Origin: Escherichia coli
GTDB lineage: Bacteria > Pseudomonadota > Gammaproteobacteria > Enterobacterales > Enterobacteriaceae
Assembly (NCBI RefSeq): GCF_036507355.1
Contig: NZ_AP027877.1
Reading direction: 5' to 3' (one strand)
DNA: 64,000 bases
In this document: in pieces, positions 5,452 to 64,000 of the stretch
Numbering within the stretch: the first letter of the stretch is position 1
Layout: the number at the start of each line of letters is the position of its first letter
Made by a program: the position numbers and the translations under genes
The notes under the pieces: generated by a model
Seen by the model: only the letters and a program-made list of their open reading frames with translations
What the model was told of the DNA's origin: nothing
Database searches by the model: none

Positions 5452-5528
<77 letters not shown>

Positions 5529-5562
5529 TCACCGTACTGCTTTTACTTCATCAAATTTTGAT

Positions 5563-5639
<77 letters not shown>

Positions 5640-5672
5640 TCACCGTACTGCTTTACTTCATCAAATTTTAAT

Positions 5673-5749
<77 letters not shown>

Positions 5750-7090: not shown

Positions 7091-7270
7091 AGGGTGAGGG
7101 ATAACCTCACATCCTGATTATTGACTAAGTGCGCGTTGTTCATGCCGGATGCGGCGTGAACGCCTTATCCAGCCTACAAATCATGCAAATCCAAAATATT
7201 GCAGGAGTTATGTAGGCCTGATAAGCGTAGCGCATCAGGCATTTATGCGTTTAGGGTGAGGGATAACCTC
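7091..7270. repeat. BIME-like cluster: two REP palindromes bracketed by an 18-bp direct repeat
   Basis: AGGGTGAGGGATAACCTC at 7091-7108 and 7253-7270; REP-like units GCCGGATGCGGCGTGAACGCCTTATCCAGCCTAC and GTAGGCCTGATAAGCGTAGCGCATCAGGC between them. Confidence 0.6.
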
Positions 7271-10234: not shown

Positions 10235-10440
10235 AAAAAAAAGCACCGCAATTAGGCGGTGCTACATTAATCACTATGGACAGACAGGGTAAATGTACAG
10301 GAAGTGAAAAAAGGTAGCTTTGCTACCATGGTCTGAATCGCAGACCAATTGCAAACACAACAACACAACATCACAACCGTAAGCCAAAAGTTCACCAGAA
10401 CACGCATTCCGATAAAACTTTTCGTTCCGGCTCAGGAAGT
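10235..10440 (-). ncRNA. gcvB: GcvB small regulatory RNA
   Basis: Minus-strand 206 nt reading ACUUCCUGAGCCGGAACGAAAAGUUUUAUCGG...GCACCGCCUAAUUGCGGUGCUUUUUUUU, matching GcvB as I recall it; G/U-rich target-binding region; intrinsic terminator; divergent from gcvA. Confidence 0.9.
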
Positions 10441-17552: not shown

Positions 17553-17634
17553 CAGGATTCCTCATCTCGCTTTATTGGCGCTCTGCTAAGGCGGAGAAAG
17601 GAAACCACCGAAGCAGTAGTATTGGTCATTATTT

Positions 17635-17650
17635 GCTAACTCGAGTTAGC
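17635..17650. promoter_or_regulatory. Perfect 16-bp palindrome GCTAACTCGAGTTAGC (candidate operator), copy 1
   Basis: Exact self-complementary 16-mer centred on CG in the fucI / ABC-transporter divergent intergenic region. Confidence 0.5.
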
Positions 17651-17694
17651 TTAGGTTCGTAGGCTTTTTATGCACAACTTTTTTGTTGTTGAAA

Positions 17695-17710
17695 TGTGAG
17701 GGGCTTCACG
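17695..17710. promoter_or_regulatory. CRP-like site TGTGA-N6-TCACG
   Basis: TGTGAggggctTCACG, 9 of 10 matches to the CRP core consensus, lying between the two palindromes. Confidence 0.4.
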
Positions 17711-17873
17711 AGAAGTGGTTAAAATACGATCTCTGTCAAATTATTATTTAGCGGGACAAAAATAAATTTTACGTATAATCATATGTTTATTAGATTTTAA
17801 TGGTTATGCATCACAGTTTTAACTCAAATGATTTGGCTAATTTGTATACCTAAAATAGCTTTAAAAGGCGATC

Positions 17874-17889
17874 GCTAACTCGAGTTAGC
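17874..17889. promoter_or_regulatory. Perfect 16-bp palindrome GCTAACTCGAGTTAGC (candidate operator), copy 2
   Basis: Identical to the copy at 17635-17650; centre-to-centre spacing 239 bp. Confidence 0.5.
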
Positions 17890-18021
17890 AAAATGCGAAG
17901 AATAGATTGATGCGATGAATATTTATTCAAAGGTTATTCGTATCACAGTGGAGATGGCTTTAGTAGCGACGTTTATGCCGTACTTCACATTTTCAGTTTC
18001 TGATTATTGAGGAAAGCTGCA

Positions 18022-19521
18022 ATGTCCGAAACATTTTTGCAAATGAAGCATATCACCAAACGCTTTCCTGGAGTGTTGGCGCTTAATGACGTGCAATTTT
18101 CCCTACGCCGGGGCGAGGTTCATGCATTATTAGGTGAAAATGGTGCAGGAAAATCTACCTTAATGAAAATTTTGTCGGGGGTTTATCAACCTGATGAAGG
18201 CGAAATAATTTTTGAAGATAAACCAGTCTCATTTTCTGATCCGTTAAGTGCGCAAAACGTAGGTATTACTATTATTCACCAGGAATTTAATTTATTTCCC
18301 GAGCTTACAGTAGAGGAAAATATTTTTATCGGCAGGGAGTTTTGTAAAAAAAATCGCTGGCGTCTGGATGAGAAACAGCAACGCCAGGCGACGATCGAAA
18401 TTTTGCAAAAATTAAATTTGGCGATCAAACCAGATACTCTGGTTGCCGACCTTACGGTAGCTCAACAGCAGATGGTTGAAATTGCCAAGGCCATTTCGGT
18501 TAACGCCAGGATTCTCATTATGGATGAACCTACTGCGGCGTTAACAGAAACTGAAATTGAAAGCTTATTTCGCGTCACCCGCTTATTGAAAGAGCAGGGG
18601 ACCGGCATTGTGTATATATCCCACCGTCTGGAAGAGTTGGCGCTAATTGCCGACCGCGCGACTGTAATGCGTGATGGTCAGTACATCAGTACGGTGGATT
18701 ATGAGTGCGTAAAAATCAGCGATCTGATTGCCATGATGGTTGGTCGCGATTTAGGGAATATCTATCCCCGCCGCGAGGCCATACAGCAGCGGATGCCGGT
18801 TCTGGAGGTCAACGGACTGACGCGCAAAGGCGTACTCAACGATATTAATTTTACGCTTTATCGTGGCGAGATCCTCGGCTTTGCCGGACTGATGGGGGCA
18901 GGTCGTACTGAACTTGCGCGTGCGATTTTTGGTGCGGACTCCATTGACAGCGGAACGCTAAAGTTAAATGGTAAGGAAACCGTTATTAAAGATATTTCGG
19001 ATGCTATTCAGCAGGGAATTAGTTACCTGACGGAAGACCGAAAAAAAGAAGGGTTGGCACTGAATTTATCTGTTGAACGAAATATTATGTTAGGAAATTA
19101 CCCTGAGTATTCCGATCGTTTTGGGAATGTCGATTCGCGTCGTTGCCAACAAACCAGTGAGGAACAGGTAAAAGCGTTAAGGATTAAAACGCCAAATCTT
19201 GAACAGGCTGCATTAAATCTAAGTGGAGGAAATCAGCAGAAAATTATAATTGCACGTTGGGTGTGTAAAGATACTGATATTTTAATCTTCGATGAACCCA
19301 CTCGCGGCATTGATGTTGGCGCCAAACTGGAAATCTATGAGTTAATGAATCGCCTGGTGGCAAAAGGGAAATCAATCATCATGATCTCCTCTGAATTGCC
19401 GGAGGTGTTAGGAATGTGCGACCGTATTTTAGTGATGCGCAGTGGTCGAATTACTGGCGAACTTAGCGCAAATGAAGCGACACAAGAAAAAATCATGCAA
19501 TACGCGACGTTAGAGGATTAA
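18022..19521 (+). CDS. Sugar ABC transporter ATP-binding protein, two fused ABC domains (CUT2 family, RbsA/XylG-like)
   Basis: 499-aa product from ATG 18022 (GAGGA RBS); Walker A GENGAGKST, second-domain signature LSGGNQQK and degenerate second P-loop GLMGAGRTE; about 42% GC. Confidence 0.85.
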   Translation: MSETFLQMKHITKRFPGVLALNDVQFSLRRGEVHALLGENGAGKSTLMKILSGVYQPDEGEIIFEDKPVSFSDPLSAQNVGITIIHQEFNLFPELTVEENIFIGREFCKKNRWRLDEKQQRQATIEILQKLNLAIKPDTLVADLTVAQQQMVEIAKAISVNARILIMDEPTAALTETEIESLFRVTRLLKEQGTGIVYISHRLEELALIADRATVMRDGQYISTVDYECVKISDLIAMMVGRDLGNIYPRREAIQQRMPVLEVNGLTRKGVLNDINFTLYRGEILGFAGLMGAGRTELARAIFGADSIDSGTLKLNGKETVIKDISDAIQQGISYLTEDRKKEGLALNLSVERNIMLGNYPEYSDRFGNVDSRRCQQTSEEQVKALRIKTPNLEQAALNLSGGNQQKIIIARWVCKDTDILIFDEPTRGIDVGAKLEIYELMNRLVAKGKSIIMISSELPEVLGMCDRILVMRSGRITGELSANEATQEKIMQYATLED

Positions 19522-19524
19522 ATT

Positions 19525-20508
19525 ATGACTATCTCTGTAACCTCTCCAGACAGCAATAATAAGAAAATAAAGATAAATAAAGAACTTTTGATGCGCCTTG
19601 CGCCTCTTTTTAGCTTAATTATATTAGCGCTGTTTTTTAGTTTCAGCTCTCCCTTTTTCTTTAATACCGAAAATATCATGACGATTGCTCTGCAAACGTC
19701 GGTTATCGGCATTATGGCCATTGGGGTAACTTTCGTCATTATTACCGCGGGCATCGATCTTTCATTGGGTTCCGTGGTGGCTTTTTCTGGTGTCGCCGTG
19801 GGGATTTGCGCCACACTGGGCCTGCCGCTGCCAGTGTGTATTATTGCCGGTGTTTTAGCCGGTGGAATGTGCGGCTATGTGAATGGTTTGTTGGTCACTA
19901 AAATGACTATTCCACCGTTTATCGCTACCTTGGGCCTGATGATGTCCGTCAGAGGTATCAATATGGTGATGACCGACGGGCGCGCCATCTATTTTGCCGA
20001 TTACCCGATGTTCAAAACGCTCGCTCAGGGACGCTTGTTTGATGTGCTACCTTATCCTGTTTTCTACCTGGTCATTGTGGCGCTTGTCGGCGCTTACATC
20101 CTGAAGAAAACGGTTATTGGTCGCTATGTCTATGCCGTAGGCAGTAATGAAGTTGCTGCTCATCTTTCTGGTATTAAAGTTCAGCGCGTGAAAATTTTCG
20201 TCTATGCCTTCTGTGGTTTATTAACCGGGATTGCGGGTGTCATTCTCGCTTCTCGTCTCAACTCCGGACAACCGACGGTAGGTGTGGGTTATGAGCTGGA
20301 AGCTATTGCTGCGGTAGTGATCGGCGGAACCAGCTTAATGGGCGGTATTGGCACTATTGGCGGCACAATCATTGGCGCTTTCATTATGAGTGTACTGAAA
20401 AATGGCCTCAATTTAATGGGGGTCTCTCAGTTCTGGCAAATGGTCGCGATGGGCGTAGTTGTGGTCGCTGCCGTTTACCTCGATACATTACGCAAAAAGA
20501 TTCGTTGA
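19525..20508 (+). CDS. Sugar ABC transporter permease (RbsC/XylH-like)
   Basis: 327-aa polytopic membrane ORF starting 4 nt after the ATPase stop with GAGGA RBS. Confidence 0.85.
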   Translation: MTISVTSPDSNNKKIKINKELLMRLAPLFSLIILALFFSFSSPFFFNTENIMTIALQTSVIGIMAIGVTFVIITAGIDLSLGSVVAFSGVAVGICATLGLPLPVCIIAGVLAGGMCGYVNGLLVTKMTIPPFIATLGLMMSVRGINMVMTDGRAIYFADYPMFKTLAQGRLFDVLPYPVFYLVIVALVGAYILKKTVIGRYVYAVGSNEVAAHLSGIKVQRVKIFVYAFCGLLTGIAGVILASRLNSGQPTVGVGYELEAIAAVVIGGTSLMGGIGTIGGTIIGAFIMSVLKNGLNLMGVSQFWQMVAMGVVVVAAVYLDTLRKKIR

Positions 20509-20581
20509 CTTAGGCTCCCTGTTTTATCGGGAAACAACTGCCCTGACGTTAAGGGTGATTCACTCAGAACGGAGTACAACA

Positions 20582-21532
20582 ATGAAAACCAGGCATTTTA
20601 TCTATGCGTTATCTCTGCTGGCTTGCGTAAGTTCCAGCGCACTGGCGAAGGATTTAAATCTTCCGGTTGTTAGTAAAGGTTTCCAACATGAATTCTGGCA
20701 AACCGTAAAAATGGGGACTGAAGCTGCGGCTAAAGAGTTGGGGGATAAAACCAGCTATGTTGGCCCGGCTGATGAAACGCAAATAGCCGAGCAAATTCAG
20801 TTAGTCGAAAATGCGATGGCGCAGAAACCGAATGGCTTGCTTCTGGCAGCCCTCGACGCGAATGCGCTCGCCCCACTGGTAGAAACGGCAAATTCACGCG
20901 GTATCAAAGTGGTGACCTTTGATTCAGGCATCAATTCAGACATTCCGGTGAGTTTTGTCGCCACCAATAACCGTAAAGCAGGTGCTCAGGCAGCTGATGC
21001 CTTAGCCGCGCAGGTAAATAATAAAGGGAAAGTAGGGATTATCGCGCACGTTGCAGGAACATCTTCCGCTATTGAACGCTCGGAAGGCTTCATGGAGCGT
21101 ATGAAAGAAAAATATCCTGACATTAAAGTTTTACCCGTTCAGTACAGCGATGGTGACCCGCAAAAAGCGATGGATAAAACTATCGATATGATTCAGGCCA
21201 ATCCCGATCTTGCTGGGATCTATGGCACCAATGAAGGTTCAACGCTCGGGGTGGCGAATGCCATTGATAGCCAGAATCTGAAAGGTAAGGTGAAGGTCAT
21301 TGGTTTTGATAGTACGGAAGCGATTATTAACTTCCTGAAGAACGGCGTCATTCAGGGCTTTGTTGTTCAGGATGCATACCAGATTGGCTATCAAGGGATC
21401 AAAACGTTGAACGCGGCCCTTTCGGGACAAGCCGTTGAAAAAGAGATCGATATTCCCGTGAAATTTGTTAATGCCGAGAATATTAACACGCCAGAAATCG
21501 ACAAACTCCTGCACCCATTCGGTAAGAAATAA
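20582..21532 (+). CDS. Periplasmic sugar-binding protein (RbsB-like)
   Basis: 316-aa product from ATG 20582 (GGAG RBS); Sec signal MKTRHFIYALSLLACVSSSALA; the six-frame ORF starting at 20459 is an over-extension. Confidence 0.85.
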   Translation: MKTRHFIYALSLLACVSSSALAKDLNLPVVSKGFQHEFWQTVKMGTEAAAKELGDKTSYVGPADETQIAEQIQLVENAMAQKPNGLLLAALDANALAPLVETANSRGIKVVTFDSGINSDIPVSFVATNNRKAGAQAADALAAQVNNKGKVGIIAHVAGTSSAIERSEGFMERMKEKYPDIKVLPVQYSDGDPQKAMDKTIDMIQANPDLAGIYGTNEGSTLGVANAIDSQNLKGKVKVIGFDSTEAIINFLKNGVIQGFVVQDAYQIGYQGIKTLNAALSGQAVEKEIDIPVKFVNAENINTPEIDKLLHPFGKK

Positions 21533-21539
21533 AAAAATT

Positions 21540-21559
21540 GGGGATGAATTTTCATCCCC
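21540..21559. other. Perfect 8-bp-stem hairpin between the binding-protein gene and the kinase gene
   Basis: GGGGATGA-attt-TCATCCCC preceded by an A7 run; no T-tract on the plus side, so it is not a canonical plus-strand terminator. Confidence 0.4.
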
Positions 21560-21585
21560 GTTATCTCCAGCGTCAGGGAGGCTTT

Positions 21586-23166
21586 ATGCACAACGGTTAT
21601 TTTCTCGGTGTCGATGTCGGATCGGCCAGTGTCAGGGCAGGCGTTTACAGTGCCAGTGGCCACAGGCTGGCATTCGCTACTGCGCCCGTCTCCCAGTTTC
21701 GCCCTGGCGGCGAGCGTGTTGAACAGTCTTCGGCGGAGATCTGGCAACAAGTTTGTAAAACGGTGAAAGAGGCGACAGCTTTGGCAGGCATCCCTGGTTC
21801 CGCAATTCGCTCGCTAGGTTTTGACGCTACTTGCTCGCTGGTTGTTCTTGATGAACAAGGCCAGGGTTTAGCTGTTTCGCCCGGTGGATCTGCGAATCAC
21901 GACATTATTATGTGGATGGATCATCGTGCAACTGTCGAGACGGCGCAGATTAACGCGACGAAGGATCCTGCATTGCGCTACGTTGGCGGCGAAGTGAGCG
22001 TCGAGATGGAGTTACCAAAGTTACGTTGGTTGAAGACGCATCTACCGCAAACCTGGCAGGCCGCTCATCGCTTTTTCGATCTGGCGGATTTTCTGGTCTG
22101 GAAAGCAACAGGGCGAGACGTCGCGGGATTATGCACGCTAACGTGTAAATGGAATTATCTGGCTCATGAGCAACGCTTTAGCCATAGCTTACTGGAATCG
22201 ATAGACCTGATCGATATGCTTGAAAGAATTCCTGCCGACATTCTTCCGCCTGGCGCTGCCGTGGGAACATTAACCGCCACAGCTGCTGAAGAGTTAGGAT
22301 TAACGACTAATGTTATCGTGGCCAGTGGCTTGATTGATGCCCATGCCGGTGGCGTGGCGCTGGCTGGCGCGCACCCATCAGGAACGCTGGCATTGATAAG
22401 CGGAACGTCGAACTGCCATATGCTGTGTAGTGAAAAAGAGATATTCACCCCTGGCGTCTGGGGGCCATACTGGTCGGCCATGTTGCCAAATTACTGGCTA
22501 ACCGAAGGCGGGCAAAGCGCCGCAGGGGCGCTGGTGGAGTGGACGCTTCAGGAGTCAGGGGCAAGCGCAAATCTTTTTCACAAGGCGCAGCAACGCGGAT
22601 GTCATCCGATTCAACTGATTAATGAATGGGTAGCCGCCCTGGAAGCTAACGAGTCAGAACCCACACGAAATTTACATGTGCTTGCCGATCATCACGGCAA
22701 CCGTTCGCCACGAGCGCGGCCCGATGCCAGAGGCAGTGTTTATGGCTTAACACTGGAGCGTGGTGAAAGTCAGCTCGCGCGACTTTATCTTGCGACTTTA
22801 CAGGCAATAGCCTTTGGCACCAGACATATTATTGAAACTCTCAGGGAAAATGGGCATACCATTACCCGATTAACATTATGTGGTGGTGCAACGCACAACC
22901 CTTTATGGCTACGCGAATATGCAGACGTGACAGGCTGCGATATCCACCTGATGCAAGAAGAAGATGCCGTTACATTGGGTGCAGCAATTAGCGGCGCTGT
23001 TGCCAGCGGAGCATGGGGGGATTTTACATCTGCGTGTAAAGCAATGGTTGAAGCCGGAGAGGTTATTCAGGTAAATCCACAACGCCGTGAATTTTTAGAG
23101 CGTAAATACCGGGTTTACCTGACGCTTTGGGAGCAACAACAGGCAGTTAACCAACTGATGCAATAA
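21586..23166 (+). CDS. FGGY-family carbohydrate kinase, pentulose (ribulokinase-like) type
   Basis: 526-aa product from ATG 21586 (AGGGAGG RBS); FGGY N- and C-terminal domains (GVDVGSASVR, IIMWMDHRA); distinct from fucK. Confidence 0.8.
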   Translation: MHNGYFLGVDVGSASVRAGVYSASGHRLAFATAPVSQFRPGGERVEQSSAEIWQQVCKTVKEATALAGIPGSAIRSLGFDATCSLVVLDEQGQGLAVSPGGSANHDIIMWMDHRATVETAQINATKDPALRYVGGEVSVEMELPKLRWLKTHLPQTWQAAHRFFDLADFLVWKATGRDVAGLCTLTCKWNYLAHEQRFSHSLLESIDLIDMLERIPADILPPGAAVGTLTATAAEELGLTTNVIVASGLIDAHAGGVALAGAHPSGTLALISGTSNCHMLCSEKEIFTPGVWGPYWSAMLPNYWLTEGGQSAAGALVEWTLQESGASANLFHKAQQRGCHPIQLINEWVAALEANESEPTRNLHVLADHHGNRSPRARPDARGSVYGLTLERGESQLARLYLATLQAIAFGTRHIIETLRENGHTITRLTLCGGATHNPLWLREYADVTGCDIHLMQEEDAVTLGAAISGAVASGAWGDFTSACKAMVEAGEVIQVNPQRREFLERKYRVYLTLWEQQQAVNQLMQ

Positions 23167-23230
23167 GACAAAAGTTGAAAATACTTTTATGATTGTGATT
23201 TGACGTCTGGATGTTAACTGGGAAATACCT

Positions 23231-24229
23231 ATGGCTAAAACAGTAGAGCAGATAGCCAGCGACCTGAATTTATCGGTTACGACCGTGCGACTGGTGCTAA
23301 ATGGAAAAGCGGAACAATATCGAATCAGCGTCAAAACCCAAACGCGTATCAATGAATATGTTGAACACTATGGTTATATCATTAATCATTCCGCTCGCAG
23401 CCTTAAACTTAACAAAACTGATACATTAGGGTTGATTGTTCCCAACATATCCAACGTCTTTTTTGCTACGCTGGCAGAAAAACTTGAACAACGCTGCCGA
23501 CGTTCCGGATATCAACTTACGATCAGTTGTACTTATGATGATGTCGACTATGAAAATAAATTGACGAAAGCATTTATCGCACGAAATGTAGATGGTCTTT
23601 TTATTGTTCCTTCGACGCTGGAGAATCAGCAGCATCATTTACGCAAAATTCGTAAACCAATGGTTTTACTCGACCGTGATTTTAAATATACCGATAATGC
23701 ATTGGTAGAGAGTAATAATATTTCTGGCGGAGAAAAGTTGACACAAAATATTCTTGAGGCCGGGCAGACTCCAGTATGGTTTTTGCTGGGGGATGCCGGT
23801 TTGCCGAGTATCAGCGATCGTCTGACAGGTTATTTGAATGCGTTGGAAAAAAAAGGGATTACCCATCGCGATTGGGTGCGAGAAGGCCCGGTAAATACTC
23901 CGGAAGGCGGCTATGTCATTATGGAAAAACTCATTGAAGAGCAGGGATGTCCGCAGGCATTTATCGCCTCGTCTTTACCTGTGCTTGAAGGCGCTGTCCG
24001 CGCGATTCGCGACCGTCTTGGCGCTGTACCGCCAGAAATCAATATTGGCACTTTCGATGAACATCCCATGCTGGGATTTCTCGCCAACAATGTCTGGTCA
24101 ATGCAGCAGGATGAAAATGCCTGGGCAGAAAAAGCGTTCGAAATGATGTTAAGCGCGATCGAAGAAAGACCAGTCAAAAAAACAGTCAAAGTAGAAATGA
24201 AATTAATTAAGCGCATAAGAAAAAAATAA
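23231..24229 (+). CDS. LacI-family transcriptional regulator
   Basis: 332-aa ORF with N-terminal LacI HTH (VEQIASDLNLSVTTVRLVLNG) and periplasmic-binding-like effector domain; about 43% GC. Confidence 0.85.
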   Translation: MAKTVEQIASDLNLSVTTVRLVLNGKAEQYRISVKTQTRINEYVEHYGYIINHSARSLKLNKTDTLGLIVPNISNVFFATLAEKLEQRCRRSGYQLTISCTYDDVDYENKLTKAFIARNVDGLFIVPSTLENQQHHLRKIRKPMVLLDRDFKYTDNALVESNNISGGEKLTQNILEAGQTPVWFLLGDAGLPSISDRLTGYLNALEKKGITHRDWVREGPVNTPEGGYVIMEKLIEEQGCPQAFIASSLPVLEGAVRAIRDRLGAVPPEINIGTFDEHPMLGFLANNVWSMQQDENAWAEKAFEMMLSAIEERPVKKTVKVEMKLIKRIRKK

Positions 24230-24362
24230 TAATCGCCAAAAGATAATCAGGCTATTGAACAATGATATTCAGTGGCCACCCCTTACTAAAAATAACCCCG
24301 TCTTCATTTGCGGTGCTGTTTTACGCAACAAGGCGAGCTGGAACTGTATCTGGAGAATAGAG

Positions 24363-25010
24363 ATGGAAAGAACACGTTTATCCCGTGAAATAATTGAAAC
24401 CTGTCTGGAAATGACGCGCCTTGGGTTAAATCAGGGGACTGCGGGGAATGTCAGCACACGTTTTGAAAACGGCATGTTGATTACTCCAAGCGGTATTCCT
24501 TATGAAAGAATGACGGAGAATATGATTGTCTATGTTGATGGCAACGGCAAATACGAAGAAGGTAAGATTCCTTCCAGCGAATGGCGTTTCCATATGGCGG
24601 CCTATCAAAGCAGACCGGATGCCAACGCGGTTGTTCACAATCATGCCGTTCATTGCACAGCAGTTTCCATTCTTAACCGACCGATCCCCGCTATTCACTA
24701 CATGATTGCGGCGGCTGGCGGTAATTCTATTCCTTGCGCGCCTTATGCGACCTTTGGAACACGCGAACTTTCTGAACATGTTGCGCTGGCTCTCAAAAAT
24801 CGTAAGGCAACTTTGTTACAACATCATGGGCTTATCGCTTGTGAGGTGAATCTGGAAAAAGCGTTATGGCTGGCGCATGAAGTTGAAGTGCTGGCGCAAC
24901 TTTACCTGACGACCCTGGCGATTACGGACCCGGTGCCAGTGCTGAGCGATGAAGAAATTGCCGTAGTGCTGGAGAAATTCAAAACCTATGGGTTACGGAT
25001 TGAAGAGTAA
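24363..25010 (+). CDS. fucA: L-fuculose-1-phosphate aldolase (class II); N-terminal third diverged from the K-12 sequence
   Basis: 215-aa product from ATG 24363 (GGAGA RBS); residues from about 70 onward match K-12 FucA as I recall it, the first ~70 differ at about 18 positions. Confidence 0.85.
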   Translation: MERTRLSREIIETCLEMTRLGLNQGTAGNVSTRFENGMLITPSGIPYERMTENMIVYVDGNGKYEEGKIPSSEWRFHMAAYQSRPDANAVVHNHAVHCTAVSILNRPIPAIHYMIAAAGGNSIPCAPYATFGTRELSEHVALALKNRKATLLQHHGLIACEVNLEKALWLAHEVEVLAQLYLTTLAITDPVPVLSDEEIAVVLEKFKTYGLRIEE

Positions 25011-33535: not shown

Positions 33536-33892
33536 GAGTCAGACAACGAAGTGAACATCAGGATGATGACACTTCTGAAGGACACACCAGGATGGTGTTT
33601 CAGGGAAAGGCTTCTGGATGAAGCGAAGAGGATGACGCAGGACGCGTTAAAGGACACCTCCAGGATGGAGAATGAGAACCGGTCAGGATGATTCGGTGGG
33701 TCAGGAAGGCCAGGGACACTTCAGGATGAAGTATCACATCGGGGTGGTGTGAGCAGGAAGCAATAGTTCAGGATGAACGATTGGCCGCAAGGCCAGAGGA
33801 AAAGTTGTCAAGGATGAGCAGGGAGCAACAAATGTAGCTGGAATGCTGCGAAACGAACCGGGAGCACTGTGAATACAGTGCTCCCTTTTTTT
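33536..33892 (+). ncRNA. csrB: CsrB, CsrA-sequestering small RNA
   Basis: About 360 nt with roughly 18 CAGGAUG/AGGA repeats, ending in the intrinsic terminator GGAGCACUGUGAAUACAGUGCUCCCUUUUUUU; 5' end approximate. Confidence 0.9.
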
Positions 33893-33937
33893 ATTCCTGC
33901 TATCCTTCGCGGCAGTTTTTCTTATTGAGGTTGCTTT

Positions 33938-51863: not shown

Positions 51864-52766
51864 TTACCATCTTCCTGACGCGCCGCCACCGCCGGATGAA
51901 CCGCCGCCACCGCTGAAATTGTCATTGTCGAAAGAGGATGAAGAGGAAGAAGACGATGACGAATGCCAGGAGGCCGAGTTGCTTCTTTCGTAGCGTGACG
52001 GTCGGTTTGCACTACGCATTGAATCACGCACCTTTCTGCCGAAAGGTGTGAAAGCGATAGCTACGACCAGGAATGGAGTGGCGAAACATAATAATGTGGC
52101 AAGAATTCCCCAGCTCCCGCTATATCCAGCGATGGGAAGTACAAAGGCCAGTATTATGGCAGCAAAGCAAATCACTCCCAGCGTTTTGATATATCCTCTG
52201 GCAGAAATAAACGTCAGTACTATCGCCCAGACTAACAGAGCCCACCAACCGCTAAAGGGTAAAGGATGATCGGGCGATGTATTATTGACTAAATCATTTC
52301 CTGATAGTCGGGTTTCAATATCACCAATACCTTGTTGCAAGCCGACAGCAAGGTCGCCCTTTTTAAACGCTGGAATAATACTGTTGCGTATAATTTGCCC
52401 GGACTGCGCATCCGTCAGAATACCCTCAAGTCCGTAGCCAATTTCAATATGTACTGTATGATCTTGCTAGGCAACTACCAGTAAAATACCGTCATCAAGA
52501 TTCTTATGACCGGGCTGCCAACGCTCGAATACCCGCGTTGCGTACTGCTCGATGGTTTCGTCGCCTGTTGTATCAACCACTAACACGACCAACTGTGCGT
52601 GTTTTTTTTGTGTCAGGGCTTTAATCTGGTTGGTCAGGGTGTTTACTTCGCTGTTTGTTAATGTGCCGGTTAAGTCATTCACATACTTGGGTGATTCAGG
52701 TACTGGAATTTGTGTGGCAAACACAGATGAACAGAAGAAAGCCGTAAGGAAGATAAAATTTCGCAT
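51864..52766 (-). pseudogene. ygcG: TPM-domain (YgcG-like) protein interrupted by an in-frame TAG at 52467-52469
   Basis: N-terminal ORF (signal peptide MRNFIFLTAFFCSSVFA plus start of TPM domain) and C-terminal ORF (TM segments plus Gly/Ser-rich tail) are in the same frame, separated only by the amber codon; sequence reads ...LLVVA-TAG-QDHTVHIEIGYGLEG... Confidence 0.75.
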
Positions 52767-52779
52767 AGAACTTCCCCGC

Positions 52780-53400
52780 TTAATGAGCATTAGCATTCTG
52801 GCTAAAATCTATTGTTGGGGCTTTACTTACTGCGGCGACATCATCCGGCAAATAATTTTTCTTTGGTGTGTAATCCATGACCTTTGCGGTTAATACAGCG
52901 GGGAATTTGCGGATAGTGACATTATATTGTTCAATGGCTTTAATATATCTTCCTCGCGCAACGGCAATTCTATTCTCACTTCCTTCGAGCTGTACCATTA
53001 AGTTTTGATAGAGCTCTTGAGCCTTTAACTCAGGGTAACGCTCACTAATTATCGTTAACTGACCGAGAGTGCGAGTCACCTGCGCCTGGGCCTGTTGCCA
53101 GGCTTGTAATTTTTGTGCATCTCCGGGAGCTTGCTGAAGATCGCTGCTGGCGCGATTAGCCTGGCTACGAGCCAATGTTACGGCTTCCAAAACGTCTTTT
53201 TCATGGTTGGAATAACCTTTAATACTGGCGACAAGATTAGGAATAAGATCGGCGCGACGTTGATATTGATTTAATACCTCAGACCAGGAGGCGTTAACCT
53301 GCTCATCATAGGTTTGAATATCGTTATATCCACAGCCTGATAAATTGAAAATAAATATAATTAAGATGAATATCCTGAGCATGTTTAAATCCTTTTTCAT
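52780..53400 (-). CDS. LemA-family protein (probable lipoprotein)
   Basis: 206-aa LemA-family ORF with N-terminal signal and lipobox LSGC; stop lies 13 nt upstream of the TPM gene start. Confidence 0.8.
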   Translation of the reverse strand: MKKDLNMLRIFILIIFIFNLSGCGYNDIQTYDEQVNASWSEVLNQYQRRADLIPNLVASIKGYSNHEKDVLEAVTLARSQANRASSDLQQAPGDAQKLQAWQQAQAQVTRTLGQLTIISERYPELKAQELYQNLMVQLEGSENRIAVARGRYIKAIEQYNVTIRKFPAVLTAKVMDYTPKKNYLPDDVAAVSKAPTIDFSQNANAH

Positions 53401-53554: not shown

Positions 53555-54226
53555 ATGCAGTACCCGATTAACGAGATGTTCCAGACCCTGCAAGGTGAGG
53601 GTTACTTTACCGGCGTCCCCGCCATTTTTATTCGTTTACAGGGATGCCCGGTTGGCTGTGCCTGGTGCGACACCAAACACACCTGGGAAAAGCTTGAGGA
53701 TCGGGAAGTCTCCCTTTTCAGCATTCTGGCGAAGACCAAAGAGAGTGATAAGTGGGGGGCGGCGAGCAGTGAAGACTTGTTGGCTGTCATTAGTCGCCAG
53801 GGATACACCGCGCGGCATGTGGTGATTACGGGTGGTGAGCCTTGCATTCATGATTTGCTACCACTGACTGATCTGCTCGAAAAGAACGGTTTTAGCTGCC
53901 AGATCGAGACCAGTGGTACTCATGAGGTACGCTGCACACCGAATACCTGGGTTACCGTATCGCCAAAGCTGAACATGCGCGGCGGCTATGAAGTGTTGTC
54001 ACAGGCACTGGAGCGAGCCAACGAAATCAAGCATCCAGTGGGGCGCGTACGCGATATTGAAGCACTGGATGAACTATTGGCAACGCTGACCGATGATAAA
54101 CCGCGAGTCATTGCACTGCAGCCGATTAGCCAAAAGGATGATGCCACACGATTGTGCATTGAAACCTGCATTGCGCGTAATTGGCGTTTGTCGATGCAAA
54201 CACATAAATATCTAAATATTGCCTGA
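53555..54226 (+). CDS. queE: 7-carboxy-7-deazaguanine synthase (radical SAM)
   Basis: 223-aa ORF with cysteine cluster CPVGCAWCDTKHTW. Confidence 0.9.
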   Translation: MQYPINEMFQTLQGEGYFTGVPAIFIRLQGCPVGCAWCDTKHTWEKLEDREVSLFSILAKTKESDKWGAASSEDLLAVISRQGYTARHVVITGGEPCIHDLLPLTDLLEKNGFSCQIETSGTHEVRCTPNTWVTVSPKLNMRGGYEVLSQALERANEIKHPVGRVRDIEALDELLATLTDDKPRVIALQPISQKDDATRLCIETCIARNWRLSMQTHKYLNIA

Positions 54227-54419
54227 TTAAACATTTATAAGCGTTATAAATGGGTGGAACCTGTAAAGACTTCTACTCATTTATATTCTTTGTCGCCTCT
54301 GAAAACTCCTCCATTTTACCCATCCAGGGCTAATCATTAGCATTCTCTACAAATTCTGTGGTGTTAATTTTTTGTTGGAGTGAAAATTATTGCGGTAAAG
54401 TTTGGTAGATTTTAGTTTG

Positions 54420-54565
54420 TATAGAATTATTTTAAATATTTGCCTTTTTAATCAATGGGTTAAGTGCTCTTTAACATAATGGATGTGTTGTTTGTGTGAT
54501 ACTGTAAAGTTGGTAGATTGTGACTGGCTTAAAAAATCATTAATTAATAATAGGTTATGTTTAGA
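54420..54565 (+). promoter_or_regulatory. AT-rich CRISPR leader of array 1
   Basis: AT-rich tract ending ...GGTTATGTTTAGA immediately 5' of the first repeat. Confidence 0.6.
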
Positions 54566-54777
54566 GAGTTCCCCGCGCCAGCGGGGATAAACCGGAGAGA
54601 GTCCAGTATCAATCCCGCGATCCGCAGAGTTCCCCGCGCCAGCGGGGATAAACCGCCGTTGCGGATCTTGAGTAGTGCCACGTCACCGAGTTCCCCGCGC
54701 CAGCGGGGATAAACCGGGTACAAAAGAGGCCCCATTCTGGCAGGGCTCGAGTTCCCCGCGCCAGCGGGGATAAACCA
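54566..54777 (+). CRISPR. Type I-E CRISPR array: 4 repeats of 29 bp, 3 spacers of 32 bp
   Basis: Repeats GAGTTCCCCGCGCCAGCGGGGATAAACCG at 54566, 54627, 54688 and 54749 (last ends in A); spacers GAGAGAGTCCAGTATCAATCCCGCGATCCGCA, CCGTTGCGGATCTTGAGTAGTGCCACGTCACC, GGTACAAAAGAGGCCCCATTCTGGCAGGGCTC. Confidence 0.95.
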
Positions 54778-55241
54778 CCATATAACCCGTTATCTCTTTC
54801 TCAAGTTTTTATATTAGCAGTACTTGTAATAAGCAACATATCCACGTAACACCTCATGTTCAAAATAGTTCCCCATGCCAGATAAGTTCACAATTATCGA
54901 TACAAAAAATTAAATTTAATCAAAGTGTTATTTGTATAATTCTTAAGCCGTTAAGAAATTTTAATCTATTATTTTTTTAATATTAATTAATGCCTGTTAA
55001 TTTTTTCTTTAGTATAACAGTGTATTTTTTAAGCTTGTTATTCATTGATTAAGTAATAAATCTGGAAATTTGTCTTTGTTTTGAGGCTAATGAGTGGTTT
55101 TACATAACCGCCTCTATACGCTGTTGATGAATAGTTCTTATGAATAAAGATATCCAGTTCATACTTTAAGTGAAAATTGATAAAGTGCGATTCGTATTGT
55201 CTTTTATTCTAAAGACATCGAGTGTAGTTAATATTCCTTGT

Positions 55242-55368
55242 AAAAACAGGGATAAACCGAACTAGTTAAAGTTTTTATTATGTTCCCTGCATCAGCGGGG
55301 ATAAACCGGACTTGTTATCATTTTTTAAGTTGTCGAACTTATGTTCCCCGCGCCAGCGGGGATAACCA
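55242..55368 (+). CRISPR. Degenerate type I-E CRISPR array remnant: 2 decayed repeats plus a partial repeat, 1 full-length spacer
   Basis: Partial repeat ...CAGGGATAAACCG ending 55259; ATGTTCCCTGCATCAGCGGGGATAAACCG (55280-55308); 32-bp spacer GACTTGTTATCATTTTTTAAGTTGTCGAACTT; ATGTTCCCCGCGCCAGCGGGGATAACCA (55341-55368). Confidence 0.8.
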
Positions 55369-55414
55369 TTCAGGTATGTTCAGGCCGGGCAGTTTCCCGC
55401 CCGGTTTTCCTCAC

Positions 55415-56893
55415 TTACGCATTCGACCAGCTCTGGATCGAATCCGCATTTCCCAATTCCCCATGCATCACTTCATACGATTTTTTCAGAATCACATCAG
55501 TATGTTTGGTTAGGTCTTTGAAAATGCCTTTATTCATCGCGTCGTAGCGTTTGGCATTGCTCTCAATCGGTATAAAGATATCTTTCACGCGAACCATTTT
55601 ATCGACAGCCGTTGCGTAATCCGGGTATAGCCCCAGACCTACCGCGGTATTAATCGCTGCCCCCAGACTTGCACAACCGTTAATGGCGTTACGTCGTGCC
55701 GGAAGGTTGAACACGTCGGCAAAAATCTGCATAAACAGATCGCTGTTCGAACCGCCGCCAGTAATGATCACATGCTTCGCAAAGTGATTCATTTCATTAC
55801 ACATATTGTCGTAATTGTTCTTCAGCGTCAGCGCCACGCTTTCCAGTATCGAACGATATATCCATGCGTAATCCATGCTGGAATCAAAGCCGATCATAAT
55901 CCCGCGTTTGTACGGTTCCCACGGATTGGTCAGCCAGTCCAGCACCGTCATCAGCCCATTACAGCCAGGTGGCACACTAGAGGCTTTCTTGTTGAGTAAA
56001 TCTTCCGGTGAAAGATCCTGCGCCCTGGCATCCTGAATTAACGACTCGCCCAACATGTCGCGCAGCCAGCTCACCGTCCACATGCCTTTGCGAATACCGT
56101 AACCTTCATACAGCAATGTTTGCGGAATAGAAGACATAATCGGCCAGTACGCCACCGGATCTTTCGGCAAGGCTTTGCCGTTCATCATCAATGCGATGTA
56201 AGTGCCAAGAGAAATTACCGCAGTTTCATCATCCAGTAATCCGGCCCCCAGAGCTTCTACCGGTTTATCACTGGTGGTACAAACAACCGGCAGTCCTGCC
56301 GGGAAATGTGTCGCCAGTGCGGCTTGTGGTGTGATATGTCCGAGGACGGTGCCAGGCATTTGCACATCAAACAGCATATGACGAGGGATATTAAACTTCT
56401 CCATTACCGCAGCATCTTCGCTCCATGCCCAGCTCTTATAATCCACCGGCCACTGACCAAAATAGTTGGCGATATTGTCTTTAAACTCGCCGGTTAAGCG
56501 ATGCGTCAGATAACCCGAAAAAGAGGTGACATATGCCACGTCAGGATTCGTAGGTTCGTAAGGGCGTGTAACGCGTGCATCCTGCCAGCTAATCAATGGC
56601 GCAGCTGGCGTGCCATCGGCTTTCAATAACGCACGGCAGCAACGGATGGATCCCAGACCAATACCGACAATATCTTCTTTATTCCCGGCAAACTGACTCA
56701 TCAAATCGTGACCGGCAAAACATAATGATGCCCATAAATCGTCGTCAGGATGTTCTGCAGTATCGGCATCTGGCGTGTGCATCGGCTGCAATAAACCTTT
56801 GCCTTCGCAAACCACATTACCTTCCAGATCGTACATCACCACTTTTGTGCTCTGACTTCCGCCATCAATCCCTATGATATATTTTTTCGACAT
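55415..56893 (-). CDS. ygcE: FGGY-family sugar kinase
   Basis: 492-aa FGGY-family ORF (GIDGGSQSTK). Confidence 0.85.
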   Translation of the reverse strand: MSKKYIIGIDGGSQSTKVVMYDLEGNVVCEGKGLLQPMHTPDADTAEHPDDDLWASLCFAGHDLMSQFAGNKEDIVGIGLGSIRCCRALLKADGTPAAPLISWQDARVTRPYEPTNPDVAYVTSFSGYLTHRLTGEFKDNIANYFGQWPVDYKSWAWSEDAAVMEKFNIPRHMLFDVQMPGTVLGHITPQAALATHFPAGLPVVCTTSDKPVEALGAGLLDDETAVISLGTYIALMMNGKALPKDPVAYWPIMSSIPQTLLYEGYGIRKGMWTVSWLRDMLGESLIQDARAQDLSPEDLLNKKASSVPPGCNGLMTVLDWLTNPWEPYKRGIMIGFDSSMDYAWIYRSILESVALTLKNNYDNMCNEMNHFAKHVIITGGGSNSDLFMQIFADVFNLPARRNAINGCASLGAAINTAVGLGLYPDYATAVDKMVRVKDIFIPIESNAKRYDAMNKGIFKDLTKHTDVILKKSYEVMHGELGNADSIQSWSNA

Positions 56894-58197: not shown

Positions 58198-58375
58198 ATC
58201 GTATTCCCATTTGTAATAGACAAAAAAAAGAGAAAAGTAAGCCGCCCTTTCAGGTGGATTACTTTTCTCAGGTCTCTAGTAATTGAAATAATAAATAACA
58301 TGGAAAGCAGAGGTGTTGTGTGAGAGTAATCACGCTTCTGCTTTTTAAAACTATTTGATAATGCGAATATCACAC

Positions 58376-58391
58376 TGTGATTACGATCACA
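58376..58391. promoter_or_regulatory. Perfect CRP core site TGTGA-N6-TCACA
   Basis: TGTGAttacgaTCACA in the divergent yqcE / ygcU' intergenic region, about 57 bp upstream of the ygcU' ATG. Confidence 0.5.
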
Positions 58392-58440
58392 TTAGCAGTT
58401 ATGTCCTTATGCTAAAAATTATCTCCAGTTACCAGAGATA

Positions 58441-59571
58441 ATGAGAAAGGTAACTGAGAATATGCAGGCGACGGCGCAATGTGGCGTTCCGCTGGAGGTG
58501 CTGGAAAACGCGTTGCGTGAAAAAGGTTACACCACGGGGCATTCTCCGCAGTCAAAGCCGCTGGCGCAGATGGGCGGCCTGGTAGCAACCCGCAGTATCG
58601 GGCAGTTCTCCACACTCTACGGCGCAATCGAAGATATGGTCGTTGGTCTGGAAGCAGTATTGGCTGATGGCACCGTGACACGTATTAAAAACGTGCCACG
58701 CCGCGCGGCTGGCCCGGACATTCGTCACATCATCATCGGCAACGAAGGTGCATTGTGCTATATCACTGAAGTAACAGTGAAAATCTTTAAATTCACCCCG
58801 GAAAACAACCTCTTCTACGGCTATATCCTGGAAGACATGAAAACCGGCTTCAACATCCTGCGTGAAATCATGGTGGAAGGGTATCGTCCGTCGATCGCTC
58901 GTTTGTATGACGCTGAAGATGGCACCCAACACTTCACGCATTTTGCCGACGGAAAATGCGTGCTGATCTTTATGGCTGAAGGTAACCCTCGCATTGCGAA
59001 GGCGACGGGCGAAGGGATTGCGGAAATCGTTGCCCGCTACCCGCAATGCCAACGCGTGGACAGCAAGCTGATCGAAACCTGGTTTAACAACCTGAACTGG
59101 GGACCGGATAAAGTGGCTGCCGAACGTGTGCAGATCCTCAAAACCGGCAACATGGGCTTTACTACCGAAGTGTCCGGCTGCTGGAGCTGCATCCACGAAA
59201 TCTACGAAAGCGTTATTAACCGTATTCGTACCGAGTTCCCGCACGCCGACGACATCACTATGCTGGGCGGTCACTCCTCTCATAGCTATCAGAACGGCAC
59301 CAACATGTACTTCGTCTACGACTACAACGTTGTCAACTGTAAGCCGGAAGAGGAAATCGACAAGTACCACAATCCGCTCAACAAAATCATTTGCGAAGAA
59401 ACCATTCGCCTCGGTGGTTCGATGGTGCACCACCACGGTATCGGTAAACATCGCGTTCACTGGAGCAAGCTGGAACACGGCAGCGCGTGGGCGTTGCTGG
59501 AAGGGCTGAAAAAGCAATTCGATCCTAACGGCATTATGAATACGGGTACTATCTATCCGATTGAAAAATAA
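58441..59571 (+). CDS. ygcU: FAD-linked oxidoreductase (alkyl-DHAP synthase / GlcD-like), apparently N-terminally truncated
   Basis: 376-aa ORF beginning within the FAD-binding domain (MGGLVATRSIGQFSTLYGAIEDMV); in-frame stop upstream at 58393-58395; family members are normally about 480 aa. Confidence 0.7.
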   Translation: MRKVTENMQATAQCGVPLEVLENALREKGYTTGHSPQSKPLAQMGGLVATRSIGQFSTLYGAIEDMVVGLEAVLADGTVTRIKNVPRRAAGPDIRHIIIGNEGALCYITEVTVKIFKFTPENNLFYGYILEDMKTGFNILREIMVEGYRPSIARLYDAEDGTQHFTHFADGKCVLIFMAEGNPRIAKATGEGIAEIVARYPQCQRVDSKLIETWFNNLNWGPDKVAAERVQILKTGNMGFTTEVSGCWSCIHEIYESVINRIRTEFPHADDITMLGGHSSHSYQNGTNMYFVYDYNVVNCKPEEEIDKYHNPLNKIICEETIRLGGSMVHHHGIGKHRVHWSKLEHGSAWALLEGLKKQFDPNGIMNTGTIYPIEK

Positions 59572-59664
59572 TGTGTCAGGCAGCGTTCCGCGATGATGGG
59601 GCGTTGCCTTTTCGGCTTCTCAGGCGAGAAGCCGTTCTTATTACCGGACAATGAAGGGGTAAAG

Positions 59665-63616: not shown

Positions 63617-64000
63617 CGCAGACTCCTGATAACATCGCCCGCCAGATGCCACAGGCCGTGACGACGTAAATGGCGCCAGAATAACTGGCGCAGCGGTGGA
63701 ACAGGTTTATCACCCTGATCCCATAAATCGCGGGAAATATCCTGCATTAACGCAGGCCACGCCCGATACCAGCCAGGGCGTTGCAAAAGCGCCGGAACAT
63801 GCTGATAACGCTGTAGAACATCCCACAGCAGGCTGCGCTCGACGTTGTGATGATAAAGCGGAAACAGATTTTGCGGCTCACAGTGCTGGCAGGCGCTTAT
63901 CAGCGTTTGTGCCGCCGCCTGTGCGCCAGTCAGCGCCATATCCATGCCGCGCACGGAGATTCCGGTATTGACGCAACTGCGTAACGCATCGCCCACCAGC
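63607..64000 (-). CDS. ygcN: FAD-dependent oxidoreductase (FixC / ETF-ubiquinone-oxidoreductase-like), C-terminal part only; 5' end beyond window
   Basis: Minus-strand reading frame open to the window edge; stop TAG at 63607-63609 overlaps the ygcO start. Confidence 0.7.
   Translation of the reverse strand, partial: LVGDALRSCVNTGISVRGMDMALTGAQAAAQTLISACQHCEPQNLFPLYHHNVERSLLWDVLQRYQHVPALLQRPGWYRAWPALMQDISRDLWDQGDKPVPPLRQLFWRHLRRHGLWHLAGDVIRSLRCL

Follow-up and report, generated by a model that had tools for sequence, protein, structure and literature searches.

The window, by which we mean the whole 64-kb stretch of Escherichia coli DNA that was analysed, carries two small CRISPR arrays in the intergenic region between queE and ygcE (Table 1). 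The original prediction had described the first array as four 29-bp repeats with three 32-bp spacers, and the second as a decayed array with substitutions, a 1-bp deletion and one full-length spacer; both descriptions stand. The assignment of the arrays to type I-E is likewise supported by the identity of the repeats. Of 5426 complete E. coli genomes, 4581 have a match to this intergenic region, which RefSeq labels there as CRISPR, and the window as a whole is colinear with E. coli IAI1 from recB/recD to ygcN, containing only core genes, with three small differences. As had been predicted, no cas gene lies anywhere within the 64 kb.

Table 1. Features of the queE-ygcE region, in positions of the window, and the two cas deletions seen in near-clonal relatives, in positions of the intact reference operon L029
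Feature	Position	Strand	Description
queE (ygcF)	53555-54226	+	223-aa ORF, left boundary; name from the RefSeq annotation of matching regions
leader2.3	54227-54565	+	339 bp, AT-rich, 30% G+C against 50% for the window
CRISPR2.3 array	54566-54777	+	four 29-bp repeats and three 32-bp spacers
CRISPR2.3 repeats GAGTTCCCCGCGCCAGCGGGGATAAACCG	54566-54594, 54627-54655, 54688-54716	+	three exact copies
S1 GAGAGAGTCCAGTATCAATCCCGCGATCCGCA	54595-54626	+	leader-proximal, newest spacer
S2 CCGTTGCGGATCTTGAGTAGTGCCACGTCACC	54656-54687	+	middle spacer
S3 GGTACAAAAGAGGCCCCATTCTGGCAGGGCTC	54717-54748	+	leader-distal anchor, oldest spacer
CRISPR2.3 terminal repeat variant	54749-54777	+	ends CCA; 1 mismatch
Inter-array AT-rich stretch	54778-55230	.	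28% G+C, separates CRISPR2.3 from CRISPR2.2
CRISPR2.2 fossil array	55231-55368	+	three decayed repeats, two invariant spacers
CRISPR2.2 repeat 1	55231-55259	+	strongly diverged, 63% identity
CRISPR2.2 interval/spacer	55260-55279	+	20 nt
CRISPR2.2 repeat 2	55280-55308	+	5 substitutions
CRISPR2.2 spacer	55309-55340	+	32 nt
CRISPR2.2 repeat 3	55341-55368	+	ATAACC for ATAAACC, a 1-bp deletion
ygcE	55415-56893	-	492-aa ORF, FGGY-family sugar kinase, right boundary; annotated ygcE in matching genomes
Deletion 1	L029 15273-18790		last 560 bp of cas3, all of casA and casB and first 754 bp of cas7 lost
Deletion 2	L029 19189-20593		cas5 from nt 87, all of cas6e and first 116 nt of cas1 lost

In the first array, CRISPR2.3, the repeats start 61, 61 and 61 bp apart and the three spacers all differ from one another; their length can be read as 32 bp, or as 33 bp when the PAM-derived G is counted with them. 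The repeat agrees with the type I-E E. coli CRISPR2 consensus GWGTTCCCCGCGCCAGCGGGGATAAACCG, with its GC-rich stem of 7 bp and loop of 4 nt, and is identical to, or 1 nt apart from, the repeats of K-12 and IAI1. Folded as RNA, it gives this 7-bp stem and 4-nt loop at -15.1 kcal/mol (z = -3.6). When up to three mismatches are allowed, the repeat occurs four times in the 64-kb window, against 0.00 occurrences expected from 100 shuffles. CRISPR2.3 thus has the repeat, the spacer length and period, and the AWG PAMs with matching G (see below) of a type I-E array. In Rfam, all CRISPR-DR families fell below threshold, the sole match being CRISPR-DR28 with 19 bits against a cut-off of 35, and Tandem Repeats Finder reported nothing at the arrays, where tandem identity is broken by the spacers.

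The AT-rich leader that had been placed on the queE side is indeed found there. It has the same length as leader2.3 of K-12 MG1655 and is 97% identical to it over 339 nt, and the 99 nt closest to the first repeat differ from those of MG1655 by one base. Since the leader is essentially identical to that of K-12, CRISPR2.3 should be competent as an integration target, given a supply of Cas1-Cas2. Leader2.3 is known to be conserved in strains with or without cas genes (PMC3903273) and, as mentioned in PMC3737337, was used by Yosef et al. A simple promoter scan of the leader detected no plus-strand sigma-70-like site, and the promoter and terminator counts were no higher than in shuffled sequences. 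The plus-strand polarity of the array, also part of the original prediction, is supported by the position of the leader at the queE end, by the degenerate terminal repeat at the ygcE end and by the leader-distal position of the shared spacer S3, which is the last spacer in four lineages whose upstream spacers differ.

The distance between the two arrays had been given as about 460 bp, a fair estimate: the end of CRISPR2.3 is separated by 453 bp from the strongly diverged repeat and by 502 bp from the first well-preserved one. The same spacing of 502-503 bp is found in K-12, IAI1 and others, and a 0.5-kb AT-rich sequence has been described as splitting CRISPR-II (PMC10910852, PMC3903273). The intergenic and inter-array stretches contain no credible ORF; the ORFs there are only those that run through the repeats, and coding potential was rejected. 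The second array, CRISPR2.2, forms a 139-nt block with 0-2 mismatches to K-12, IAI1, EC1515, O157:H16 and the assembly L043, and, judged from these comparisons, it is a species-wide invariant fossil. Despite the decay, folding indicates that the 7-bp hairpin is kept in all three repeats, in the most diverged one through two double (compensatory) changes and one G-U pair. In O145:H28 and in assembly L050, CRISPR2.2 is short of one 61-bp unit. For the 32-nt spacer of this array, no credible protospacer was found in the phages and plasmids searched, and its exact sequence had no match in the GTDB representatives. The 'plasmid' matches at 100% are mislabelled chromosomes.

In E. coli, the site between ygcE and ygcF is CRISPR-II, made up of CRISPR2.2 and CRISPR2.3 at a distance of 0.5 kb; the cas genes are sited solely at CRISPR-I, E. 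coli CRISPR-II is never cas-adjacent, and the cas-E operon that belongs to it is found at iap-cysH, some 20-24 kb away (PMC3903273, PMC4489801, PMC10910852). The annotation of IAI1 displays this split layout directly, with CRISPR-II at one place and cas-E at iap-cysH. The features by which the locus is recognised, namely the ygcE-ygcF site (PMC3903273), leader2.3 and the invariant CRISPR2.2 (PMC4489801), are all present in the window. The arrays are the canonical E. coli CRISPR-II locus (CRISPR2.3 and CRISPR2.2), which is already known. Because cas-E normally lies some 15-24 kb off, the cas-free window is what one expects and says nothing on orphan status. The original description of the arrays as orphan hence does not hold as it was framed, with cas genes normally distant and remnants of them found, in relatives, about 6.6 kb past the end of the window; what survives of it is that the arrays are probably functionally orphaned, for the reasons given below.

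Targets were found for all three CRISPR2.3 spacers, so that the spacer search and PAM check proposed with the original prediction gave an answer for each of them. The newest spacer, S1, matches at 33/33 positions (including the last G of the repeat) a lambdoid prophage gene of E. coli STEC384 and STEC379, with the PAM ATG. This gene is annotated as 'type I restriction endonuclease' and lies in the immunity region of a lambdoid prophage integrated at ttcA. In strain Z22-6, the CRISPR2.1 array next to the cas genes begins, at its leader end, with a 32/33 variant of S1, and Z22-7 and MB06231 carry a 32/33 copy within an annotated CRISPR. Because such variants occur in the CRISPR arrays of these three strains, the data point to independent capture of the S1 site. 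An exact scan of IMG/VR with S1 gave no matches.

The middle spacer, S2, matches at 32/33 positions, with the mismatch at position 21 and the PAM AAG, the portal gene of a P2-family prophage beside a tRNA-Leu gene in E. coli N1420. The homologous portal site in Aeromonas phage P05B and in Pseudoalteromonas phage C5a gave weaker matches. S2 was not found in any other array among the 5426 genomes, and a scan of IMG/VR in which the variable base was made degenerate returned no matches.

The oldest spacer, S3, matches traD of F, R100 and thousands of conjugative IncF plasmids at 30/33 positions, with the PAM ATG in F; the mismatches, at spacer positions 14, 18 and 30, lie outside the seed. As no plasmid in either collection searched matches S3 better than 30/33, the spacer is consistent with being old. 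Among complete genomes, 83 of several serotypes (including O145:H28, O169:H41, O157:H16 and EC1515) have an identical S3 in CRISPR2.3. In all four of the arrays inspected it is the last spacer, and the spacers upstream of it are unrelated among them. The exact S3 pattern had no match in the GTDB representatives. Being common to 83 genomes and last in the four inspected arrays, S3 is an ancestral anchor spacer and is not strain-specific. The earlier view of the three spacers as a strain-specific record can accordingly be kept for S2, and for S1 at this locus, which are lineage-specific, and has to be given up for S3; comparison with the CRISPR2 arrays of other E. coli, which had also been suggested, thus revealed a shared S3 as well as a CRISPR2.2 spacer that is invariant.

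The PAMs of S1, S2 and S3 (ATG, AAG and ATG) all conform to AWG, and each match runs through the G of the PAM, which is the last base of the repeat. PMC3737337 reports a CWT acquisition motif for a non-K12 I-E variant; the AWG set equals this motif and is what is expected for the non-K12 cas-E variant. Linkage of hok to E1-type cas-E has been described (PMC3903273), and the AWG PAMs fit the hok-linked, E1-type cas remnant of the window's lineage, which is described next. The predominance of prophages among the spacer targets agrees with PMC10910852.

The complete E. coli genome closest to the window's lineage shows 97.3% identity over 20 kb. As no close complete genome is available, the region past the window was read from draft relatives. 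These were found by exact look-ups of lineage-specific variants of the proteins YgcS, CysI, YgcE and LemA; the conserved proteins YgcP and CysH, used in the same way, returned solely unrelated lineages. The near-clonal set consists of the draft assemblies GCA_905398585.1, GCA_047852605.1, ERR3330519, SRR32181686 and SRR31122001, which are 99.98-100% identical to the window over 4-12 kb (1-3 differences per 10-12 kb). All near-clonal assemblies that cover the site share the diagnostic 1254-bp ygcW-ygcU deletion of the window. Past the end of the window, the gene order in these relatives is ygcN-queD-cysJIH-hok-cas3 (721 aa)-cas7 fragment (109 aa)-cas1 (287 aa)-cas2-CRISPR2.1-iap, where CRISPR2.1 has 3 repeats and 2 spacers. 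Mapped on window coordinates, cas3 would start about 6.6 kb beyond position 64000, and the cas remnants in the relatives lie about 16 kb from the array.

Alignment to the intact operon of L029, an assembly of the same wider clade, resolves the damage into two deletions (Table 1). Both are clean and internal, involve no IS, and leave cas3', cas7', cas1' and cas2. Cas3 in the relatives is short by about 186 C-terminal residues (its C-terminal quarter), the cas7 remnant is a 3' fragment encoding 109 aa, and of cas5 the first 86 nt are left. The Cas1 remnant has lost native residues 1-39, with 19 unrelated residues in their place, and keeps its catalytic C-terminal domain with 2 substitutions; Cas2 is intact. 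The type I-E cas set (cas3, casA/cse1, casB/cse2, cas7, cas5, cas6e, cas1 and cas2) is thus incomplete in the near-clonal assemblies that reach the cas region. Both junctions are identical across four independent assemblies. The remnant is carried by L027 and L030, in which the ygcW-ygcU deletion and the cas region are both covered, and also by L031 and L034. In the sample ERR3330519, the S1-S2-S3 array (L051, with 2 mismatches in 12.1 kb) and the cas remnant (L034) occur together. The cas content varies nearby: within the wider clade that shares the same CysI, L029 has an intact operon, and L028 and L035 have a larger deletion. Where the ygc region is visible, in L028 and L029, ygcU is intact, placing these two outside the window's sub-lineage.

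From the near-clonal relatives we infer that the source genome itself carries the same cas remnant, lacking Cascade and Cas6e, and that this remnant is non-functional. In a type I-E system that lacks Cas6e and Cascade, any array transcript would stay unprocessed and unused. With the Cascade genes and cas6e removed by the two deletions, and cas3 and cas1 shortened, the arrays, although not strictly orphan, are probably functionally orphaned.

The identity of the locus, the targets and PAMs of its spacers and the decay of cas in the near-clonal relatives are direct observations, and a history that connects them can be proposed. According to this proposal, CRISPR2.3, which bears the leader and is capable of growth, and the fossil CRISPR2.2 are both part of the chromosomal type I-E system; the cas-E operon of this system and its first array, CRISPR2.1, are sited beyond the window, at iap-cysH. 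Cas1-Cas2 would have inserted the three spacers at the leader end, from DNA beside an AWG PAM, beginning with traD of an F-like plasmid (S3), followed by the portal gene of a P2-family prophage (S2) and then by a lambdoid prophage gene (S1). Later, two internal deletions would have destroyed cas-E, leaving no Cas6e, no Cascade and truncated Cas3 and Cas1. The intact leader may still give rise to a transcript, which would go unprocessed and unused; growth of the arrays would have ceased, and their units could still be lost by recombination between repeats. We therefore hold it very probable that this CRISPR-II belongs to a chromosomal type I-E system whose cas-E was destroyed by two deletions, and that its arrays are most likely an inert fossil.

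The source genome might instead carry an intact type I-E operon beyond the window, normally silenced as in K-12, with crRNAs directed against lambdoid phages, P2-like phages and IncF plasmids. An intact operon is the default in cas-E-bearing E. coli (IAI1 and the assemblies L021-L023, L026 and L029), the leader is perfect, as are the first three repeats, and the three spacers match mobile elements with interference-competent PAMs and no mismatch in the seed. However, all of the ygcW-ygcU-deleted assemblies that reach the cas region (L027 and L030) carry the two-deletion remnant, as do L031 and L034, and the last of these comes from the very sample that holds the identical S1-S2-S3 array. Fewer repeats have been reported for strains without functional cas-E, and the short CRISPR2.3 with 3 spacers together with the 2-spacer CRISPR2.1 fits the reduced repeat counts of such cas-E-deficient strains (PMC4489801). 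We accordingly consider an intact operon improbable. Elsewhere, the source genome may carry another CRISPR-Cas system or a type I-E system on a plasmid.

Under the preferred reading, in which the arrays stopped growing once cas-E was destroyed, a polymorphism at S1 calls for an explanation. Over about 11.7 kb, GCA_905398585.1 shows three substitutions relative to the window; it also lacks the S1 unit, and its cas deletion junctions are the same. One may speculate that S1 was gained after the loss of Cascade and cas6e, through the activity of Cas1(delta 1-39) with Cas2 or of an integrase acting in trans. It is true that this near-clonal pair, with identical cas junctions, differs by exactly the leader-proximal S1 unit, that spacers are always acquired at the leader end, where S1 sits, and that cas2, the catalytic C-terminal domain of Cas1 (with its 2 substitutions) and the leader are all preserved. 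The N-terminal beta domain of Cas1 mediates dimerisation and contact with Cas2. In the remnant, however, 39 residues of this domain are gone and 19 unrelated ones stand instead, and the loss of a single unit without Cas proteins is seen at this very locus, making a loss of S1 from GCA_905398585.1 the simpler account. We thus favour loss of S1 from this assembly by recombination between repeats, because part of the N-terminal domain is missing from the Cas1 remnant, because Cas-independent loss of a single 61-bp unit is seen in CRISPR2.2 (O145:H28 and L050), and because the window and ERR3330519 both carry S1 (the latter in L051, among the matches listed). A gain of S1 after the decay of cas-E is, in our judgement, very unlikely; if it were true, a truncated Cas1-Cas2 or an integrase in trans would be writing memories into an array that is unable to use them.

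Finally, the notion that the repeats reflect chance, an assembly artefact or an unrelated repeat family such as REP/BIME is ruled out, by the four copies against the shuffled expectation and their exact 61-bp period, by the E. coli I-E repeat in synteny in thousands of genomes, and by the independent assembly of the same array in ERR3330519.

The literature already describes the CRISPR-II locus, the distant position of cas and the invariance of the fossil CRISPR2.2, as well as cas-E operons that have often decayed in E. coli and in Shigella, and the locus described here is of little importance beyond annotation and strain typing. What our analysis adds are targets for all three spacers (a lambdoid prophage, a P2-family prophage and traD of IncF plasmids), in agreement with the idea that the I-E spacers of E. 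coli are chiefly a record of prophages and plasmids, and a two-deletion cas remnant of possible use as a marker of the lineage. It also illustrates that, in a species that splits its arrays across about 20 kb, a lack of cas genes in the window does not speak for an orphan array.

Among the systems already characterised, CRISPR-II of K-12 MG1655 resembles that of the window in its flanking genes, its 339-bp leader, its terminal repeat of the form GAGTT...CCA and its 0.5-kb AT-rich gap, and its CRISPR2.2 differs at 1 of 139 nt. The two differ in CRISPR2.3, where 6 other spacers and GTGTT-type repeats in K-12 stand against 3 spacers and repeats of the GAGTT type in the window, and in cas-E, which is an intact, H-NS-silenced operon in K-12 and a gutted E1-type operon, still linked to hok, in the window's lineage. 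IAI1 likewise shares the 339-bp leader, the last repeat (GAGTT...CCA) and the gap of 502-503 bp, and its fossil spacer is identical.

The arrays of O145:H28 RM13514, O169:H41 F6326-C1, O157:H16 Santai and EC1515 have the same locus architecture and an identical, leader-distal S3, but every spacer upstream of S3 differs in them, and S1 and S2 are absent. The closest counterparts in terms of fate are cas-E-deleted strains of E. coli and Shigella, in which the array and its leader are kept while cas is lost or decayed, such as the derivatives of BL21, a strain not known to carry cas genes, that serve in acquisition assays, and S. flexneri 2a 301, in which cas3 is partly deleted. Unlike the deletions described in PMC3903273, which for the most part are mediated by IS elements or take out the entire IG6-IG3 interval, those in the window's lineage are two clean internal deletions that involve no IS.

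The leader-proximal spacer of CRISPR2.1 in E. coli Z22-6 (L055 1502-1533) is identical, except for one changed base, to S1, the leader-proximal spacer of CRISPR2.3. In Z22-6 the array bearing this variant adjoins cas genes, with cas1-cas2-cas6e intact. Z22-6 is an unrelated strain, which suggests that the two arrays took up this site of the lambdoid prophage independently and recently. In a near-clonal relative whose sequence extends past the window end, the lineage's CRISPR2.1 (L027 16858-17008) is down to three GTGTT-type repeats and two spacers, ACGAGGGGCTCGTTATTCGGGAAATTACAAAA and GCCCAGGGATTTGTTCAATCCAGCGTGCCGCT.

Within the fossil CRISPR2.2 array, the most diverged repeat (55231-55259) can still form the 7-bp hairpin: two of its base pairs have undergone compensatory double changes, each from C-G to U-A, and another pair is G-U. 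This pattern is more suggestive of an old variant of the repeat than of random decay. In O145:H28 RM13514 and in a further comparison locus (L050), the CRISPR2.2 block, elsewhere invariant, lacks one 61-bp repeat-spacer unit; this is an instance of unit loss through repeat-repeat recombination.

Relative to IAI1, the window has a 1254-bp deletion at 58198-59592 (junction near 58455): ygcW is gone, and ygcU, without its 5' end, remains as an ORF of 376 aa. This deletion is common to the near-clonal assemblies and was used as a lineage marker.

The RNA features identified in the window are core features expected for this chromosomal region.

Noncoding RNA features of the window
Feature	Window coordinates	Source
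Three tRNA genes in tandem (IAI1: tRNA-Met)	5455-5749	Rfam
ES036 sRNA	7177-7219	Rfam
GcvB	10235-10440	Rfam
CsrB	33536-33895	Rfam

The ygcG gene, coding for a TPM-domain protein (51864-52796), seems to be broken in two: after a TPM ORF of 99 aa (52467-52766, minus strand) comes an ORF of 158 aa in a different frame, an arrangement found likewise in the near-clonal relatives; the product is ~290-300 aa long in K-12 and in comparison locus L052. The fuc locus (17565-24392) also departs from its IAI1 arrangement. Here, fucA, fucO and fucIKUR are still present, and ~6.8 kb, coding for an ABC sugar transporter (ATPase, permease and periplasmic binding protein), an FGGY-family kinase and a LacI-family regulator, stands in place of the IAI1 fucP and fucP-fucA intergenic stretch (~1.9 kb).
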